Virus record (IMG/VR): IMGVR_UViG_3300035182_000826
Span: 1 to 64,000 of that record
Length of the DNA: 64,000 nt
Source of the DNA: a virus
Reading direction: 5' to 3' (one strand)
The position numbers and the translations under genes were made by a program. The notes under the pieces are model-generated. The model ran no database searches. It was not told the DNA's origin and was given only the letters and a program-made list of their open reading frames with translations. How positions within the stretch are numbered: the stretch's first letter is position 1; every line of letters begins with the position of its first letter. Positions 8,572 to 54,303 of the stretch are shown one piece after another.

Positions 8572-8730
8572 TTAAGCGGCCGGGCATAGCCTCGGCGACA
8601 CCAGGCGACGCCGGCTCACCTCAGACATAACGGCCAATAAGTTATGCGCAAACGATAAAGGGCACCGGTTGGTGCCCTTTATTTGCGTAGTGCCTCGAGC
8701 TATTCAACCCGCTATTCGTCGGCTAATGCG
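8572..8730 (+). repeat. Outlying, degenerate copy of the palindrome plus 32-bp repeat family
   Basis: ttaagcg...cctcggcgacaccaggcgacgccggctcacc...caataagttatgc, then ttcaacccgctattcgtcggctaatgcg at 8703; matches units at 22.6-24.5 kb and 50.3-50.5 kb. Confidence 0.85.
8655..8682. terminator. Probable bidirectional intrinsic terminator
   Basis: ataaagggcacc-ggtt-ggtgccctttat hairpin between convergent genes. Confidence 0.7.
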
Positions 8731-8823
8731 TATAACGCGTGCTCACACCAGATCTTACTGAACTTAACTTTCTTACTTCCATCTTCTGAGGTAACGCCTG
8801 CCTTCATGGAAGCAATCATGTCA

Positions 8824-22547: not shown

Positions 22548-22704
22548 GCTAAGTCAATGTTCTAGTTCACTAGATGAGCTGGTTCAAATGGCCATTTACA
22601 AAACAGCGCACATGTTTTGAGGGCACATAGAGCATCACCTCGGCGACACCGGTGAGGTCCAGCTCACACCGGCAGGCGCGAGCAATAAGTTATACACAGT
22701 CATT

Positions 22705-22732
22705 AAGGGGCACCCAACCGGTGCCCCTTTTT
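22705..22732 (+). terminator. Intrinsic terminator at the array's left edge
   Basis: aaggggcacc-caacc-ggtgccccttttt. Confidence 0.7.
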
Positions 22733-24034
22733 CGCATTGAACCCGCTGGCGAGCACTGTGAGCAGCTGATCACCTCTCCAATGAAGAACCTATTGAACTC
22801 CGGCTTCACGGCAAATCTGATGATGTTGAACCCGCTATCTGTCGGCTAATGCGCTCTGTGTACGCCTCACCACTAAGAGCACCACCTAATTTGACACCTT
22901 TCTTAAGTGCAGCTCGCCTTAAGCGATAGAGCACAGCCTCGGCGACACCGGTGAGGCCCGGTGTGAGCCGGACGGTGCGGGCAATAAGTTATGCATAGCA
23001 CTTGGCCGGTGTGAGCCGGCGTCGCCTCGTGTCGCCGGCTCACGTTGAACCCGCTATTCGTCGGCTAATGCGCTCTGCGCACACGCCGCACCACAAAGAA
23101 CTGATCACCCACTCCAATGAAGACTGATCACCCACTCCAATGAAGAACTTGTTGAAGAACTTGTTGAAGAATCCATTGAACCCGCTATTCGTCGGCTAAT
23201 GCGCTCTACGCACGCCGCACTGTGTGAGCGACTGATCACCCACTCCAATGAAGAATCCATTGAACTGATCACCTACGAATCCATTGAACCCGCTATCTGT
23301 CGGCTAATGCGCTCTATGGGCACCACACAAACAAAGAACACCTTACCACTAAGATCAACACCTAATTTGGCGCCTTTCTTAAGTGCAGTTCGCCATAAGC
23401 GATAGAGCACACCCTCGGCGACACCGGTGAGGTCCAGCTCACACCGGGCCTCACCACCAATAAGTTATGCATAGCACTTGGCCGGTGTGAGCCGGCGTCG
23501 CCTCGTGTCGCCGGATGATGTTGAACCCGCTATCTGTCGGCTAATGCGCTCTGCGCACACGCTGCACTGTGAGCAACTGGCCATCTCTCCAATGAAGAAC
23601 TTGTTGAAGAACCAATTGAAGAATCCATTGAACCCGCTATCTGTCGGCTAATGCGCTCTGCGCACACGCTGCACTGTGAGCAACTGGCCATCTCTCCAAT
23701 GAAGAACTTGTTGAAGAACCAATTGAAGAATCCATTGAACCCGCTATTCGTCGGCTAATGCGCTCTGTGTACGCAGCACCACTAAGAGCCCCTTCTAATT
23801 TGACACTTTCTCAAGTTCGGCACAAATGGCGGCCCACCTTAAGCGATAGAGCACAGCCTCGGCGACACCGGTGAGGTCCGGCTCACACCGGACAGTGCGG
23901 GCAATAAGTTATGCATAGCACATAGCTGGGGGTGAGCCGGCGTCGCCTCGTGTCGCCGGCCCGCGTTGAACCCGCTATTCGTCGGCTAATGCGCTCTGCG
24001 CACACGCCACACTGTGAGCAACTATGATCACCTC

Positions 24035-24121
24035 AATCCATTGGAAGAATCCATTGGAAGAATCCATTGGAAGAATCCATTGGAAGAATCCATTGGAAGA
24101 ATCCATTGGAAGAATCCATTG
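24035..24121. repeat. 13-bp tandem repeat (aatccattggaag) x6 plus a partial copy
   Basis: Six exact copies at 24035-24112. Confidence 0.95.
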
Positions 24122-24592
24122 AACCCGCTATCTGTCGGCTAATGCGCTCTATGGGCACGCGCTCTGTGAGCAACTATGATCACCTCAATCCAATGAAGAA
24201 CCCATTGAAGAACTGATCACCTCAATCCAATGAAGAATCCGTTGAACCCGCCGGCTAATGCGCTCTATGGGCACACACTGTGAGCAGGGTACCAAAGGAG
24301 TTCCTAGCACCACCACCTAATTTGACACTTTCTCAAGTGCGACACAAATGGCGGCCCGCCTTAAGCGATAGAGCACACCCTCGGCGACACCGGTGAGGTC
24401 CGGCTCACACCGGACCTCACCGGTAATAAGTTATGCATAGCACATAGCCGGTGTGAGCCGGCGTCGCCTCGTGTCGCCGGCCCGCGTTGAACCCGCTATT
24501 CGTCGGCTACTGTGCTGCGCTCTCACAATGACTTTTTTGGGATCTTGCTTCTTTGTAAATAAGAAACTTCAGTCAAGCAACGAACCAATCGT

Positions 24593-38291: not shown

Positions 38292-38906
38292 ATGAATCTG
38301 TACAAGTACCATGAGAAGCCAACATCACTGCTACACCATGGCATAGCTCATGACTCAGTTCCATTATTATTATGGGAGAAGTACAAGGGCAATAGGACAC
38401 AGCTGAAGAAACGAGAACACGTGATTGCTACAAGTGCAAAGTACTCGTATGAGTACGCGAAAGATGTCCTCAATGGCCCATTTCCGGCTGGCAAAGCCGT
38501 AATTGCAAGAGACTCATATTTTGCATACCTTTACGCAAGAGATGTTCTTCATGGCCCATTTCCGGCTGGCGAAGCCGCAATTGCGAAGGACACACAATAT
38601 GCCTACCTTTACGCAAGAGATGTCCTCAATGGCCCATTTCCGGCTGGCGAAGCCGTAATTGCGAAGGACACACAATTTGCCTATTATTATGCCAAGGATG
38701 TTCTAAAAGAACCATGGCCAAAGGGAGAGGACGCGATTGCGAAGACACCAGCATCTGCATACATGTACGCGAGAGCTGTCCTCAATGGCAGGTTTCCAAA
38801 AGGAGAAGCCGCAATTGCGAAGGACCCAAACTTAGCACATGTGTACGCAAGAGAAGTTCTCAATGCCGACTTCTATTATGATGGTAAGTTAGTTGGAAAT
38901 AAATAG
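38292..38906 (+). CDS. 25-aa tandem-repeat protein (paralogue of 58317-58697)
   Basis: About six repeats of AYLYARDVLNGPFPAGEAAIAKDTQ (75-bp DNA period); N-terminus MNLYKYH...WEKYK shared with 58317-58697. Confidence 0.85.
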   Translation: MNLYKYHEKPTSLLHHGIAHDSVPLLLWEKYKGNRTQLKKREHVIATSAKYSYEYAKDVLNGPFPAGKAVIARDSYFAYLYARDVLHGPFPAGEAAIAKDTQYAYLYARDVLNGPFPAGEAVIAKDTQFAYYYAKDVLKEPWPKGEDAIAKTPASAYMYARAVLNGRFPKGEAAIAKDPNLAHVYAREVLNADFYYDGKLVGNK

Positions 38907-49191: not shown

Positions 49192-50115
49192 ATGCTGAAT
49201 GATCCTAAAACCTACACGTATTCACCACGGTATGCCGGTGGTGACGTGAAGTTGCTTACCAGATCTAGTCGTAGATCAAAGCTGCTGGCTGGTGGTACGT
49301 ACTTCAGGTCTGTTCAGCGTGGTGAGCTATCGAACTTGATTAGCTGTGCTGTGCTCGAGGACGGGAACACCGGCGTGTTCATTCAGGTTCATGATGTGTT
49401 GAACTCGGCTGAAATGGTGACTCTGACTGGATTGAGCGCTCAAGTTCAAGTGCTGAGTTTTGATAGACCATTTGATAATGGGTATGAGACAGGCGTCTTA
49501 ATTCAAAAGAGTGGTGGTGAGGTGCGCGCACACATAATACGCATTAGGTGGCAGATAGCGGGTTCAACACTCACGTTCACATCAGAGACCATCACTGATC
49601 TTGGAACTATTCAGCTAAAGCAGTTGAACACTATTGGTGGAGTGCGATTTACCTTGTCAAACACCGCCTGGTCAGATGGTGACTCGCTTATGATTCATGC
49701 AAGATCGCAGTACACCATGCTGTCACAAATCACCGTGCAGGTAACTGACCCAGTCACTTCTGTTGTTACGCCAGTGACAGGCTGGAATATTGGCGCGCTT
49801 AGATCAGCATTGGCTAATTCGGCTACCACATGGGTAAAGATGCCTTCGCGTGGAACGACACAGACGCCAGCAACACCAGAGGATGTGTTAGACACAGGGG
49901 TGGATGAAGTTGTTATGACGGCGTTTCAGAAGACGTACATGAACGGTGGAGATGGCTTGCCAGCATCTCCTGATCTTGTTCTGACTGGCCCTGAACGTGC
50001 GCTGATTCACTTGAACTATGCTGAGTTAGATGACGGCTCACTAGGTGAGCACAACAAGGTGTACGAGTGGGTGGGTGAGTCATCTGCAGCCGGCTCATGG
50101 CAGATCTATGCTTAA
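49192..50115 (+). CDS. Hypothetical protein (probably virion-associated)
   Basis: 307 aa; last gene of the + strand structural operon. Confidence 0.6.
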   Translation: MLNDPKTYTYSPRYAGGDVKLLTRSSRRSKLLAGGTYFRSVQRGELSNLISCAVLEDGNTGVFIQVHDVLNSAEMVTLTGLSAQVQVLSFDRPFDNGYETGVLIQKSGGEVRAHIIRIRWQIAGSTLTFTSETITDLGTIQLKQLNTIGGVRFTLSNTAWSDGDSLMIHARSQYTMLSQITVQVTDPVTSVVTPVTGWNIGALRSALANSATTWVKMPSRGTTQTPATPEDVLDTGVDEVVMTAFQKTYMNGGDGLPASPDLVLTGPERALIHLNYAELDDGSLGEHNKVYEWVGESSAAGSWQIYA

Positions 50116-50255
50116 CCGGGTGTCGCCGGCTCACACCAAAATGCTCACCTATAGAACTTTATGTATTTTGAGACCGGTGTGAGCCGGGCCTCACCGGTGT
50201 CGCCGAGGGTGTACCCCGCTTAAGGTCGCCAGTTTCTGAGAAGGTGGCGCTTAGG
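50116..50255 (-). repeat. Inverted, degenerate copy of the palindromic module
   Basis: ccggtgtgagccgggcctcaccggtgtcgccgagggtgtaccccgcttaagg (50174-50225) is the reverse complement of the left arm plus flank; partner arm gtcgccggctcacacc at ~50122. Confidence 0.85.
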
Positions 50256-50297
50256 AAGGAAGCACTGCGTTGCAGTTGCTTTATTGGCTGAACTGGC

Positions 50298-50540
50298 GTA
50301 CGCCTCACCACAAAGAACACCTTCTAATTTGACACCTTTAAGTGCGGCACAAATGGCGCCCCACCTTAAGCGATAGAGCACACCCTCGGCGACACCGGTG
50401 AGGTCCGGCTCACACCGGCTAAGTGCTGTGCATAACTTATTGGCTGACCTGTCTGGTTTGAGCCGGCGTCGCCTCGTGTCGCCGGATGATGTTGAACCCG
50501 CTATCTGTCGGCTAATGCGCTCTATGGGCACGCACTGTGA
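50298..50540 (+). repeat. Complete outlying unit of the array
   Basis: ctaatttgacac...ccttaagcgatagagcac flank, 98-bp palindrome at 50387-50484 and 32-bp repeat at 50492. Confidence 0.95.
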
Positions 50541-50557: not shown

Positions 50558-50707
50558 TCGTTTCTTTGCCTTTGCAATCAACTTACCATCGTGGTAGAAG
50601 TCAGGTTGCGTAGGCCTGGTTGGACGCGGCCTCACCTTTTGATCAAGGACCGATGATGCAATTGTCACTTCACCTTTAGGAAATGGCCGGACATCTTTGT
50701 AGAGATT
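50558..50707 (-). pseudogene. Collapsed remnant of the 25-aa-repeat gene family
   Basis: The minus strand reads NLYKDVRPFPKGEVTIA...PDFYHDGKLI with no start codon, matching MNLYK, GPFPKGEDTIA and DFYYDGKLV of the two intact paralogues. Confidence 0.7.
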
Positions 50708-53700
50708 TACTTCACCTGTCTGATAACGGTTGATGTAAGCGCATCCACAATTTCAATGTCAGAGAGCTGTGCGCTTGAGAGCAGAATTTCATCAAACCCA
50801 CTTTCAACAGTGAAAAGGTCTCCAAAGGAGTTTGTTCCATATAGTGGAACCAACACAACGGACGCGACATCTACTGGCAGACGCTGGTGCATCAGTGACA
50901 ACAGATCAGTTGCATAGAACGTCTCACCGAAATCCCAATTCTTGATGTCAAAGTACGTGTTCACTACGTACAGCAGCTCTTCCTTGATGCGTTCATCGGT
51001 CAAGGTGCTTGATTGTGTCTTCACGACCTTGAACTTGGCTCTGTACTGAGGCTCAGCCAGTGATCCAAACAAGAGTTTGAACTTGCCAGAGTGAAGAACC
51101 ATTGTGTCGCTCATCATTTTGTTCTTCAATAGCGCTGAGTACGAGGTCTTTAGTTCAAGAGGAGTTGGCACATCTGGGGCGCTCGATTGCTCACCATTGA
51201 TGTATGAAACCATGCCGTCATAGTACCCCTGTGTAATCAGGTAAGCATCATGAATGTTCGTTGGTGAAGGATCAATCATGTTCGTGTATGGTGCAAAGTG
51301 CTGCCACATGAAGTCAAGACCGGTGTCATCACTTGAGATGGCTGGCATGCGCTGTCTTCTACCGAACACGGTTCCGTCTGTGCCCCATGCGGTAAACGAG
51401 CCGGCGCTCACACCACTGAATGCAGCCGCGGCCGTTGCAATGTCAGTGCTTGAGGTCAATAGGGTGATCGTTGAGGATGAAGGCTCAATCACGTAGTACT
51501 CGTAGCTACCAGCACTGAATGTCTCAAACTGCAACATGTAGTCTGGTGTCAAATCGCCAGAAGTGCTTGTTTGCAACATGTCACTTGGCATGATTTGGAG
51601 CTTATTGAAGTTTGTGACGCCGGTGCTGTCTTTGATTGGTCCTACCACATCATAGATCTGGTTCTTTTTCAAGACTGTGTTGTTCACATCGAGATTAGAG
51701 CGAAGGATCTTGATGTTGTCAAACACCCGCTTTTGAGTGTCATTGTCAATGAGTTGATCAACTTCATTGTACCAGAAGTTTGTTGTGTTAGATTCAACTG
51801 CCAATGACAAGTTCCGATAGTGGATTTCATAGCCAACGGATAGCTTCTTGATGAAAATCAACCAGCTGTATTGAGTGACATCTTGCGTGAACAAGAGCTC
51901 TTGCCCAACTGAAATCGTTCCACCAGCAAAATCTGGGAGCTGTGAGTACCCTAGGATCTCCCACCAACCGTTTAGATTGATCACTCCCGTGCTGTTGTAG
52001 TTCACATGATAAGCTGACGTGCGAGGTGTCAACACGCCATTGATAGTGTCAATCACGAAAGCGTCACCAGGTTCAAATGGAACACTACCAGCTGTAATCG
52101 TGAAGAAGCTCACAGATGTTTGGCTGCCTGGAGGTTGAACTTGGTATGTGTTGCCAACGACGCCGGTACTCAGTGTGCCCTGAATGCTTGAGCGCACATA
52201 GAAGGTTTCACCGTCAGCCGCGATTTCAATCGTCCACACGTCTGCATTTGGGACAGTTGTTAGGACACCACCAACGTAAGTTGTGTAAGTGCCGTTGATT
52301 ATCGCAGCATCTGTTGTTGACAATGTCAACGTACCAGAGCCAATGCCAAGCATGGTTCTATTGAACTTCAGTGCGAAGTAATCTTGTTCAGCAATTGGCT
52401 GCAGCCCAGAGCCAACGTCACCAGGTGGATACTTTGTAACACCGTCAATTGTGCGAGGCACAGTAGATTGATAGATCCGTGAGTCATCCTTTGGATAGAG
52501 CGCTGGGTCAGGAATCACGGCCCAAATCTGATTGTTCGTGCCTTCGACGTAGGAAAGTGGTTCACCATACCAGTGTCTGTCAATCAGACCTTGCATGGCG
52601 GTTTTTTCTTTCAATGATCCATCTGGAGTTGTACCGTCAATCAGCTTCACGTAACCATTTGATGATGAGAACAATCCAGACCTGTTGTCCTCAATGAAGG
52701 AGGTTCTTGGCGTTGACACAACACCGACAGTTGCAGCATCTGTAGCAGACAAGTGAGTAAGCGCTGTGATCATTCCATTTGTCGACAACAGTGGTTCGAT
52801 CACAGAGTCGATAAGGGCTTGGCCAGAAACCGTGGTCGTCAGTGAGTCAAGACCAAGCTCATATCGCGTCACCAAATCATCGCCGAACAGCTTCACATTT
52901 TCATATGACCCAGATGCATCGTTCCAGTCGATGTACTTTGGTTGGCCAGCAAAGGTTCTGTTGATCGTCTTCAACCGAAGGATTGATGGGTCCTTCAACA
53001 GGAACGTGTTGTAGTCCTGTCCATTCACCATTCGGTTCTGTGAATAGTAAGTGGCTGGAGCTGATTGTCTGATGTGTTCAATCGTTTCAGAGCCAGAGCC
53101 GTTCTGAAGAGTAGAGCACAAGCTGAACGTGAATGTGCACGTCTCGCTGTTGCCAGTGCTTGACTGATAAGTCACTGGCATTGCCGTGTTCACAATCTTG
53201 TTCTTTGCGATGACAATTGATCGGTTAATCGACTGTCTCATCCAAAATCTGAACAACCCCTGCGGCATATCAGCAAAGTCGCCATCACCGAACAGAACTG
53301 AAATCTGATCATTTTCGAGAGTGTCAACTTCGTACTTTGCACGAGTGGTTCTGTCAGTGTTGAAGATCAAGTTCTGTTCACTGATAGTGTCTACTTGAGC
53401 CCATCTTGCGGCAATGTCACCGTTTGAATTTACCTGCTGAACCCACACGTCAGTGTCATTCACGTTGTTTGGCAGGAATGTCAACTTACGGTTTGGTAAC
53501 TTGTCTTTGATGTTCAGATCAACCTTTGTCAGGGTGCCCTGCTTTGTGTAGCCAAGGAAGCCCGTGTAGTCAGACCCATCACCAATACCGTCATCAGCGT
53601 ATAAGATTGAGAACGAAGCTGATAGATCTGGCTCACGTTCAAATGGGCCATCTGCATCAAGATCAGCCGGAACTAGTTCCATCGGAAAGCTGTCCAGCCC

Positions 53701-54303
53701 TGTGTTTGCGGTGTAAGGAAAAACGCCATTCGTGAACGATGTCAGATCAGCGTCAAGCGAATAAAGATCCAAGTTCACATCATTCACTTGGAATGACTTT
53801 TGTGGTTGCCCATATCGTGTAGTCAAAACACGGTTCATAACCAAGAAGAACTGTTCCTTCCAGTTGCTGTTGTTCGGGTCATTCCACGTGATTGTCACAC
53901 CAGACAAATCAATACCACGGCTATCAATGACATGCTCAGTGGTTGTCACTGATGTGAACTTAACAAGCCCTCGCACAGGGATGTTTCTGGTCGCCTTGTA
54001 TGAAATCAGCTTTGCAAGTCTGAGAATGCTTTGCTTACGTTGTGCAGTCGTAATGAAGTTCTCATGTGACAACATGTCAACACGATATGAGAGTTGCTCA
54101 GCCACGTAGGCGAACATTTCAATCATTGCAATGAGTTCACTCGACTCTGTCAGGTCATTGAAGATTTCAGAGTAGTAAATCCGAAGGTAGTCAATGAGAG
54201 ACTGCTTGATCGTGTCAAAGTCGTACGCAGTAAAGTTCACCTCGCTAAATGCTTGGTAGATTGATTCCCACGTTTCGGCTGAATATGAAGTGCGAAGTGA
54301 CAT
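50707..54303 (-). CDS. Baseplate wedge protein (gp6-like)
   Basis: DFDTIKQSL..Y...FND..ESS....LSYRVDM...ENFITTA.R..SI.RLAK.ISY; V.FGDG; ETIE.IR..AP..Y..QNRMV...DY. TAAATA at 54332-54337 (minus). Confidence 0.85.
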   Translation of the reverse strand: MSLRTSYSAETWESIYQAFSEVNFTAYDFDTIKQSLIDYLRIYYSEIFNDLTESSELIAMIEMFAYVAEQLSYRVDMLSHENFITTAQRKQSILRLAKLISYKATRNIPVRGLVKFTSVTTTEHVIDSRGIDLSGVTITWNDPNNSNWKEQFFLVMNRVLTTRYGQPQKSFQVNDVNLDLYSLDADLTSFTNGVFPYTANTGLDSFPMELVPADLDADGPFEREPDLSASFSILYADDGIGDGSDYTGFLGYTKQGTLTKVDLNIKDKLPNRKLTFLPNNVNDTDVWVQQVNSNGDIAARWAQVDTISEQNLIFNTDRTTRAKYEVDTLENDQISVLFGDGDFADMPQGLFRFWMRQSINRSIVIAKNKIVNTAMPVTYQSSTGNSETCTFTFSLCSTLQNGSGSETIEHIRQSAPATYYSQNRMVNGQDYNTFLLKDPSILRLKTINRTFAGQPKYIDWNDASGSYENVKLFGDDLVTRYELGLDSLTTTVSGQALIDSVIEPLLSTNGMITALTHLSATDAATVGVVSTPRTSFIEDNRSGLFSSSNGYVKLIDGTTPDGSLKEKTAMQGLIDRHWYGEPLSYVEGTNNQIWAVIPDPALYPKDDSRIYQSTVPRTIDGVTKYPPGDVGSGLQPIAEQDYFALKFNRTMLGIGSGTLTLSTTDAAIINGTYTTYVGGVLTTVPNADVWTIEIAADGETFYVRSSIQGTLSTGVVGNTYQVQPPGSQTSVSFFTITAGSVPFEPGDAFVIDTINGVLTPRTSAYHVNYNSTGVINLNGWWEILGYSQLPDFAGGTISVGQELLFTQDVTQYSWLIFIKKLSVGYEIHYRNLSLAVESNTTNFWYNEVDQLIDNDTQKRVFDNIKILRSNLDVNNTVLKKNQIYDVVGPIKDSTGVTNFNKLQIMPSDMLQTSTSGDLTPDYMLQFETFSAGSYEYYVIEPSSSTITLLTSSTDIATAAAAFSGVSAGSFTAWGTDGTVFGRRQRMPAISSDDTGLDFMWQHFAPYTNMIDPSPTNIHDAYLITQGYYDGMVSYINGEQSSAPDVPTPLELKTSYSALLKNKMMSDTMVLHSGKFKLLFGSLAEPQYRAKFKVVKTQSSTLTDERIKEELLYVVNTYFDIKNWDFGETFYATDLLSLMHQRLPVDVASVVLVPLYGTNSFGDLFTVESGFDEILLSSAQLSDIEIVDALTSTVIRQVK

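Follow-up and report, generated by a model that had tools for sequence, protein, structure and literature searches.

The 98-bp palindromic element at positions 50387-50484 carries a 34-base loop that reads in the direction opposite to that of the loops in an array of related elements located at 22-24 kb, and the question raised by this locus is whether such a loop is a switch that the phage keeps flipping or a mutation that became fixed at one place. The window, i.e., the whole stretch of DNA that was analysed, is 64,000 nucleotides long and comprises bases 1-64000 of a 161,452-bp IMG/VR virus record (IMGVR_UViG_3300035182_000826), whose completeness is estimated by CheckV at ~45%. The baseplate wedge protein encoded at 50707-54303 (-) matches phrog_10646 with an E value of 2e-256 and is 43.5% identical to its counterpart in Ralstonia phage RsoM2USA, whereas its identity to the proteins of the Xanthomonas phages XacN1 and Xoo-sp13 is ~40%; its identity to the proteins of uncultured relatives in IMG/VR is 60-68%. 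On account of these matches we place the phage among the jumbo myophages of the RsoM2USA/XacN1 group, and the record is a fragment of the genome of such a phage.

The 50387 copy is situated in a 590-bp gap where the 3' ends of two convergent genes meet, back to back with a second, diverged element (Table 1). A small terminator-like hairpin with a T-rich tail is present at 50264-50276, between the back-to-back elements, where two structural operons converge. The possibility that the element belongs to a known RNA family or is a tRNA remnant was rejected because no Rfam match was obtained at gathering thresholds in the whole window (the array gave sub-threshold noise only) and no tRNA or tmRNA genes were found.

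Table 1. Parts of the element at 50387-50484 and related elements elsewhere in the window
Feature	Position	Strand	Remark
Upstream conserved blocks, two motifs	50324-50335, 50367-50381	+	orientation as in array copies
Left outer 17-base site	50387-50403	+	first variant of the conserved site
Left inner arm, 14 bases	50405-50418	+	identical to family consensus
Loop, 34 bases	50419-50452	-	reverse-complemented relative to 9 of 11 full copies
Loop core motif, 14 bases	50429-50442	-	sole part on the - strand
Right inner arm	50453-50466	+	2 mismatches to family consensus
Right outer 17-base site	about 50467-50483	+	
Downstream 32-mer	50492-50523	+	array orientation, eight bases past the right outer site
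Diverged second element (50205 copy)	50116-50215	-	directly after the stop of gene 49192-50115
Array copy, majority loop	22940-23037	+	6-base core of left inner arm (22958-22971) inverted
Array copy, majority loop	23416-23513	+	loop start complementary to the left flank at 7 of 12 positions
Array copy, majority loop	23860-23958	+	imperfect right inner arm, one extra base
Array copy, majority loop	24382-24479	+	nested 15-bp palindrome around the 6-base centre
Half-element, first site variant	22641-22745	+	majority loop, then GC-rich terminator-like hairpin and T run replacing the right arm
Half-element, second site variant (8594)	8573-8734	+	majority loop, terminator-like hairpin, 32-mer-like block

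A reading made earlier from the sequence alone (hereafter, the sequence-only reading) had held that the flanks, the arms, the total length and the downstream 32-mer of this copy keep the orientation seen in the array and that the loop alone is reversed, and both parts of this description stand. The length is made up of 17+1+14+34+14+18 = 98 bp, with one link base between the left site and the arm, and the order, spacing and strand of all parts are those of the array copies, the loop excepted. When the 50387 loop was compared with the nine majority loops, the mean identity was 7.1/34 in the direct and 27.8/34 in the reverse-complemented orientation, and the best reverse-complemented match, to the copy at genome position 69529, reached 32/34; the pair that had been offered as an example, with the copy at 22940, was reproduced at 27/34. 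The best identity attained in 100,000 composition-preserving shuffles was 23/34. Nine self-complementary bases occupy the middle of the loop and could inflate reverse-complement matches, and when they are excluded the 50387 loop agrees with the majority loops at 5-6 of 25 positions directly and at 16-23 of 25 after reverse complementation. The inverted stretch is precisely the 34 bases that separate the inner arms, the flanks being unchanged, and the break points lie inside, or at the edge of, the 14-base arms, in line with the proposal that the exchange took place within them. The segment 50419-50452 is a true micro-inversion of the spacer in a non-coding element that is quasi-palindromic and present in multiple copies in a jumbo myophage.

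Multi-copy palindromic elements tangle assembly graphs, and an assembler may have threaded the loop backwards through the inverted repeat. We consider such an artefact highly improbable. The perfect repeat is 14 bases long and its outer neighbours differ, and k-mers of at least 21 bases should tie the loop ends to their flanks; the 50387 loop carries a private substitution (column 5) and so was not borrowed from another copy; and a like flip is found both at a second locus and in the assembly of a different phage.

The second locus came from a family search anchored on the left site, which yielded ~16 copies in the 161-kb record. Scoring of loop orientation across these copies gave 11 full 98-bp palindromes with alignable loops, nine in the majority orientation and two, at 50387 and 93232, flipped. 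The flipped copy at genome position 93232 lies on the - strand, and its loop matches the majority at 28.0/34 when reverse-complemented vs 5.2/34 directly. The loops of two further full copies, at 50205 (-) and 121528, gave alignment scores within the shuffle range, being too diverged to orient. The full palindrome is built of two variants of one site that face each other across a single asymmetric loop, and therefore a flip changes only which of the sites is in cis with the loop motif. The core motif of the loop is present in 14 copies with at most one mismatch, all of them within elements. A rule linking the absolute strand of the loop to the direction of local genes was tried and rejected: most copies agree with the upstream gene and the array at 92-94 kb disagrees. 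Copies of the outer site with 1-3 mismatches are also found inside long open reading frames (e.g., 73338-75605, -), namely at genome positions 75314-75330 (-) and 146486-146583 (+), with a partial partner site ~80 bases off.

In addition to full palindromes, the family contains five half-elements, in which a GC-rich terminator-like hairpin, in some cases with a T run, takes the place of the right arm; the full copies form a long hairpin without a T run. In the three loop-bearing half-elements (22641, 8594 and 93594) the outer site may be either the left-end or the right-end variant of full palindromes, and all three present the same succession of upstream block, outer site, inner arm, majority loop and hairpin. 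Loops of opposite orientation could arise from such modules if full palindromes were half-elements joined head to head and the copies that look flipped descended from a half-element with the second site variant. Stand-alone half-elements with the first (22641) and with the second variant (8594, 93594) do exist, the orientation of their loops is constant relative to their own site, with the terminator-like hairpin after it, and the usual unit of a relative described below is also compatible with a modular build. This origin of the 50387 copy is nevertheless unlikely, since the copy has the upstream blocks, sites, arms, 32-mer and 98-bp spacing of the unflipped copies, and with 32/34 identity to the reverse complement of an unflipped loop a one-step inversion is to be set against the rebuilding of every junction.

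The regions between the 32-mers of the array (24035-24121 and 23100-23171) contain perfect tandem repeats (13 bp x 6.7, 23 bp x 2 and 12 bp x 2.6), which may point to slippage having taken place there very recently. A further tandem repeat, with a unit of 78 bp (26 codons), occupies 38454-38865 inside the gene 38292-38906.

Relatives of the element are few. A blastn search with the array and the 50-kb junction returned nothing from INPHARED phages, IMG/VR contained no exact copy of either the 32-mer or the right arm joined to its site, and the latter was also absent from JGI metagenomes. An exact scan of IMG/VR with the left 17-mer gave 22 loci, all of them chance matches in GC-rich coding DNA except one (L009, IMGVR_UViG_3300020577_004375), where a single element of the terminator type shares 78% identity across 91 bases with the copy at genome positions 109020-109109. 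This element is located at about 1400-1490 of a 46-kb contig, right after another terminator hairpin, and the layout resembles a small transcription unit. The 307-aa protein encoded next to the element had no relative in metagenome contigs, and the collections searched yielded no near-identical contig with an orthologous locus.

A more distant genome proved informative. In a complete relative of 342,591 bp (G002, the record of L064), the right-hand 17-mer occurs 10 times exactly and 13 times with at most one mismatch; the exact copies are spaced roughly 8-50 kb apart on both strands, and the baseplate wedge protein of this phage is only ~63% identical. The right-hand site thus appears, from this comparison, to be conserved between the two phages far above the protein level. 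A recognisable homologue of the 32-mer is located just outside the site, six bases after it (L102, L103), with a 2-base insertion that changes the spacing of two promoter-like hexamers from 15 to 17; this difference would argue against a strict sigma-70 promoter in the 32-mer. Four elements of this genome share a common geometry, with the reversed 32-mer at -117, the outer 9-mer at -80 and the site at 0, and the usual unit (~97 bp) runs from the outer 9-mer through a hairpin and an interior to the full site. Orientation could be scored in this relative as well: a non-palindromic interior motif of 17 bases occurs in two elements, at -37 and -35 from the site, in opposite orientations and with 17/17 identity after reverse complementation, and it is on this one motif that the presence of both interior orientations rests. 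The interior of the element would then have taken both orientations in a second lineage, which fits either a recurring mutational process or a modular build.

The number of inversions in our record can be approached by comparing the two flipped loops, which differ at four columns when co-oriented. At columns 6, 25 and 31 both alleles also occur among the unflipped loops, and the four-gamete test with orientation fails at these three columns; such a failure would require two or more independent flips, conversion of one copy by another, or point mutations that recurred. Over its first 24 bases the 50387 loop (+) coincides fully with what the + strand reads at the loop of the 92493 copy, which itself lies on the - strand, and therefore gene conversion by an oppositely oriented copy fits equally well. 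Switching in situ and conversion by an oppositely oriented copy are inseparable here, as both use the 14-base arms.

Inversion of the loop is not the only peculiarity of this family that may be attributed to its palindromes. Two copies (22940 and 122357) carry an inversion of the 6-base core within the left inner arm. In five copies, 7-11 loop bases have been rewritten en bloc so that the start of the loop is the complement of the bases to the left of the inner arm: contiguous complementary runs of 11, 9 and 8 bases are found in the copies at 24382, 122357 and 121994, respectively, and 8/12 and 7/12 complementary positions in the copies at 156553 and 23416, vs 3-5/12 in the remaining copies. 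As a result of the rewriting, a further palindrome is nested around the 6-base core, where both RNA and DNA folding pick it up, and single strands of the elements are predicted to fold into strong hairpins (-28 to -35 kcal/mol for DNA, z -3.3 to -7.3). Template switching at quasi-palindromes is known to perfect imperfect inverted repeats and was first seen in rIIB of phage T4 (Ripley 1982; PMC7202029), and small inversions of 4-50 bp at hairpins form a recognised, recurrent class in plastid DNA (PMC12371153). The 34-base and the nested 6-base events both fit the latter size range. Inversion of the spacer, inversion of the core and perfection of the palindrome can therefore be viewed as three probable footprints of one process, template switching at quasi-palindromes.

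The sequence-only reading had ascribed the inversion to a site-specific recombinase, to cruciform resolution or to replication template switching. Of these three, template switching fits best, because the same family also has the nested 6-base inversion and the en-bloc rewriting of loops; the recombinase part of the proposal found no gene to support it. The exchange would take place within the 14-base inverted inner arms while the DNA is being replicated, possibly in the recombination-dependent mode. After copying one arm, the nascent strand would pair with the same arm sequence on the other template strand or in an oppositely oriented copy elsewhere, copy the spacer backwards and return at the second arm, and the outcome would be a mutation fixed at the locus. 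Since the element is nearly symmetric, the flip is probably nearly neutral and hence tolerated. We consider it likely that the family undergoes recurrent micro-inversions and templated conversions through strand switching or short-homology exchange, which become fixed locus by locus with little effect on the phage and do not amount to a programmed switch; the replication mechanism, the fixation per locus and the neutrality of the flip are what we infer in this account.

The sequence-only reading went further and suggested that the loop, if directional, would act as a switch. In such a case, reversible and frequent inversion in the phage population would toggle which site is coupled to a directional loop and could set, for example, the direction of priming or transcription. 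Several observations are in keeping with this idea: two orientations exist among paralogues and apparently arose more than once, the core motif of the loop is strongly conserved in its 14 copies, and the constant order of site, arm and loop in the three loop-bearing half-elements looks like that of a directional functional part. A homologue of the T4 gp49-type Endonuclease VII (PF02945, E 2.3e-15) is also encoded at genome positions 64492-64701 (+), just past the end of the window, and this cruciform and Holliday-junction nuclease is thus found in a genome full of long palindromes. Endonuclease VII is usual in T4-type phages and cuts cruciforms without inverting loops.

The other observations point away from an active switch, which we regard as quite unlikely. 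A search for a recombinase, resolvase or protelomerase elsewhere in the genome, as a carrier of the switch, was negative: no phage integrase (PF00589), resolvase (PF00239) or ResT/TelK catalytic domain was detected in the ~45%-complete 161-kb record or in three relatives with completeness of 98%, 100% and 87%. Two duplex sites bound by recombinase could not synapse across a spacer of 34 bp. To our knowledge, invertible segments driven by a recombinase measure from about a hundred bp to kilobases, and the spacer is far below any of them. The arms of the 50387 copy pair at only 12/14 positions. The contig assembles through ~15 copies, a weak hint that one state dominates at each locus.

Nor was an output of the switch apparent. 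A scan for sigma-70-like consensus sequences found none between 49900 and 50900, phage-specific promoters being outside the reach of such scans, and one site in the array vs a shuffle mean of 1.7. Neither of the flipped copies has a promoter-like sequence or a gene start downstream; the 93232 copy belongs to an array that is inverted relative to the neighbouring genes, with no adjacent gene start. The 2893-aa protein encoded after the array was considered as a candidate virion RNA polymerase of the N4 type, for which hairpins serve as promoters, and this idea was unsupported by Pfam. A variant of the switch that dispenses with a recombinase may also be envisaged, in which the loop is flipped reversibly through a hairpin or cruciform, by strand switching at a stalled fork or origin, and the choice of the 17-base site sets the direction of firing, be it of priming or of transcription. 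This variant appears to us very unlikely.

With template switching as the preferred explanation, the element provides a clear natural example from a phage in which spacer inversion, nested core inversion and perfection of a palindrome are seen side by side. It also calls for caution in the alignment and annotation of such repeat arrays, where flipped loops mimic clusters of substitutions. The tolerance of the element to either orientation of the loop constrains ideas about the function of the conserved site and the loop. If it were true that both orientations coexist at one locus, the element would represent a very small DNA switch of a new kind, and recombinase-free flipping, if true, would place a 34-bp DNA switch inside a virus genome.

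The element is best described as a conserved cassette with a putative cis-acting function, and its closest analogue appears to be the PeSL (promoter-early stem-loop) cassette of T4-type phages (PMC2839356). PeSLs are, like our elements, small repeated non-coding stem-loop cassettes located between genes, in phages related to T4, and are substrates of recombination. Unlike PeSLs, which have a strong sigma-70-like early promoter, the element had no detected sigma-70-like promoter and is a 98-bp nested palindrome around a 17-base site that distant relatives share, and inversion of the loop is not known to have been described for PeSLs. Invertons are defined by an invertase acting on repeats, and their flanking repeats are about 10-40 bases long (PMC11892184). 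The resemblance to them lies in a segment that exists in two orientations, here among paralogues, and is flanked by 14-base inverted arms. The differences are that no invertase gene was found, that no sigma-70-like promoter was detected in the segment and no regulated gene lies next to it, and that it is only 34 bp long.

The terminal hairpins of parvoviruses and poxviruses are genome termini whose flip and flop forms are made in every round of replication. As in these hairpins, the asymmetric centre of the palindrome occurs in two mutually reverse-complemented forms, which in those viruses come about via hairpin replication. Unlike them, all copies of our element are internal, between genes, and the two forms are known here from different loci.

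The mutational systems are closer. In quasi-palindrome mutagenesis, studied in the Lovett laboratory (PMC7202029; for short-range template switching, PMC9435742), clusters of changes perfect an inverted repeat, as do the 7-11 rewritten loop bases in our family, and template switching across strands, first described in a T4-type phage, also yields inversion of the spacer; the distinction is that we deal with natural footprints inferred by comparison of paralogues and not with measured mutation events. Small inversions at plastid hairpins (Kelchner and Wendel 1996; Kim and Lee 2005; reviewed in PMC12371153) differ from the case presented here in that ours is a multi-copy phage element whose orientation varies between paralogues in one genome, in the extra route offered by conversion between oppositely oriented copies, and in the two nested scales (34 and 6 bases) at which inversion takes place. 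In both cases, a spacer, of 4-50 bp in plastids, is inverted exactly between short repeats that form a stem-loop in non-coding DNA, and it is to the plastid inversions, which are recurrent and homoplasious and proceed with no dedicated enzyme (PMC12371153), that we liken the flipped loop of the jumbo phage element.
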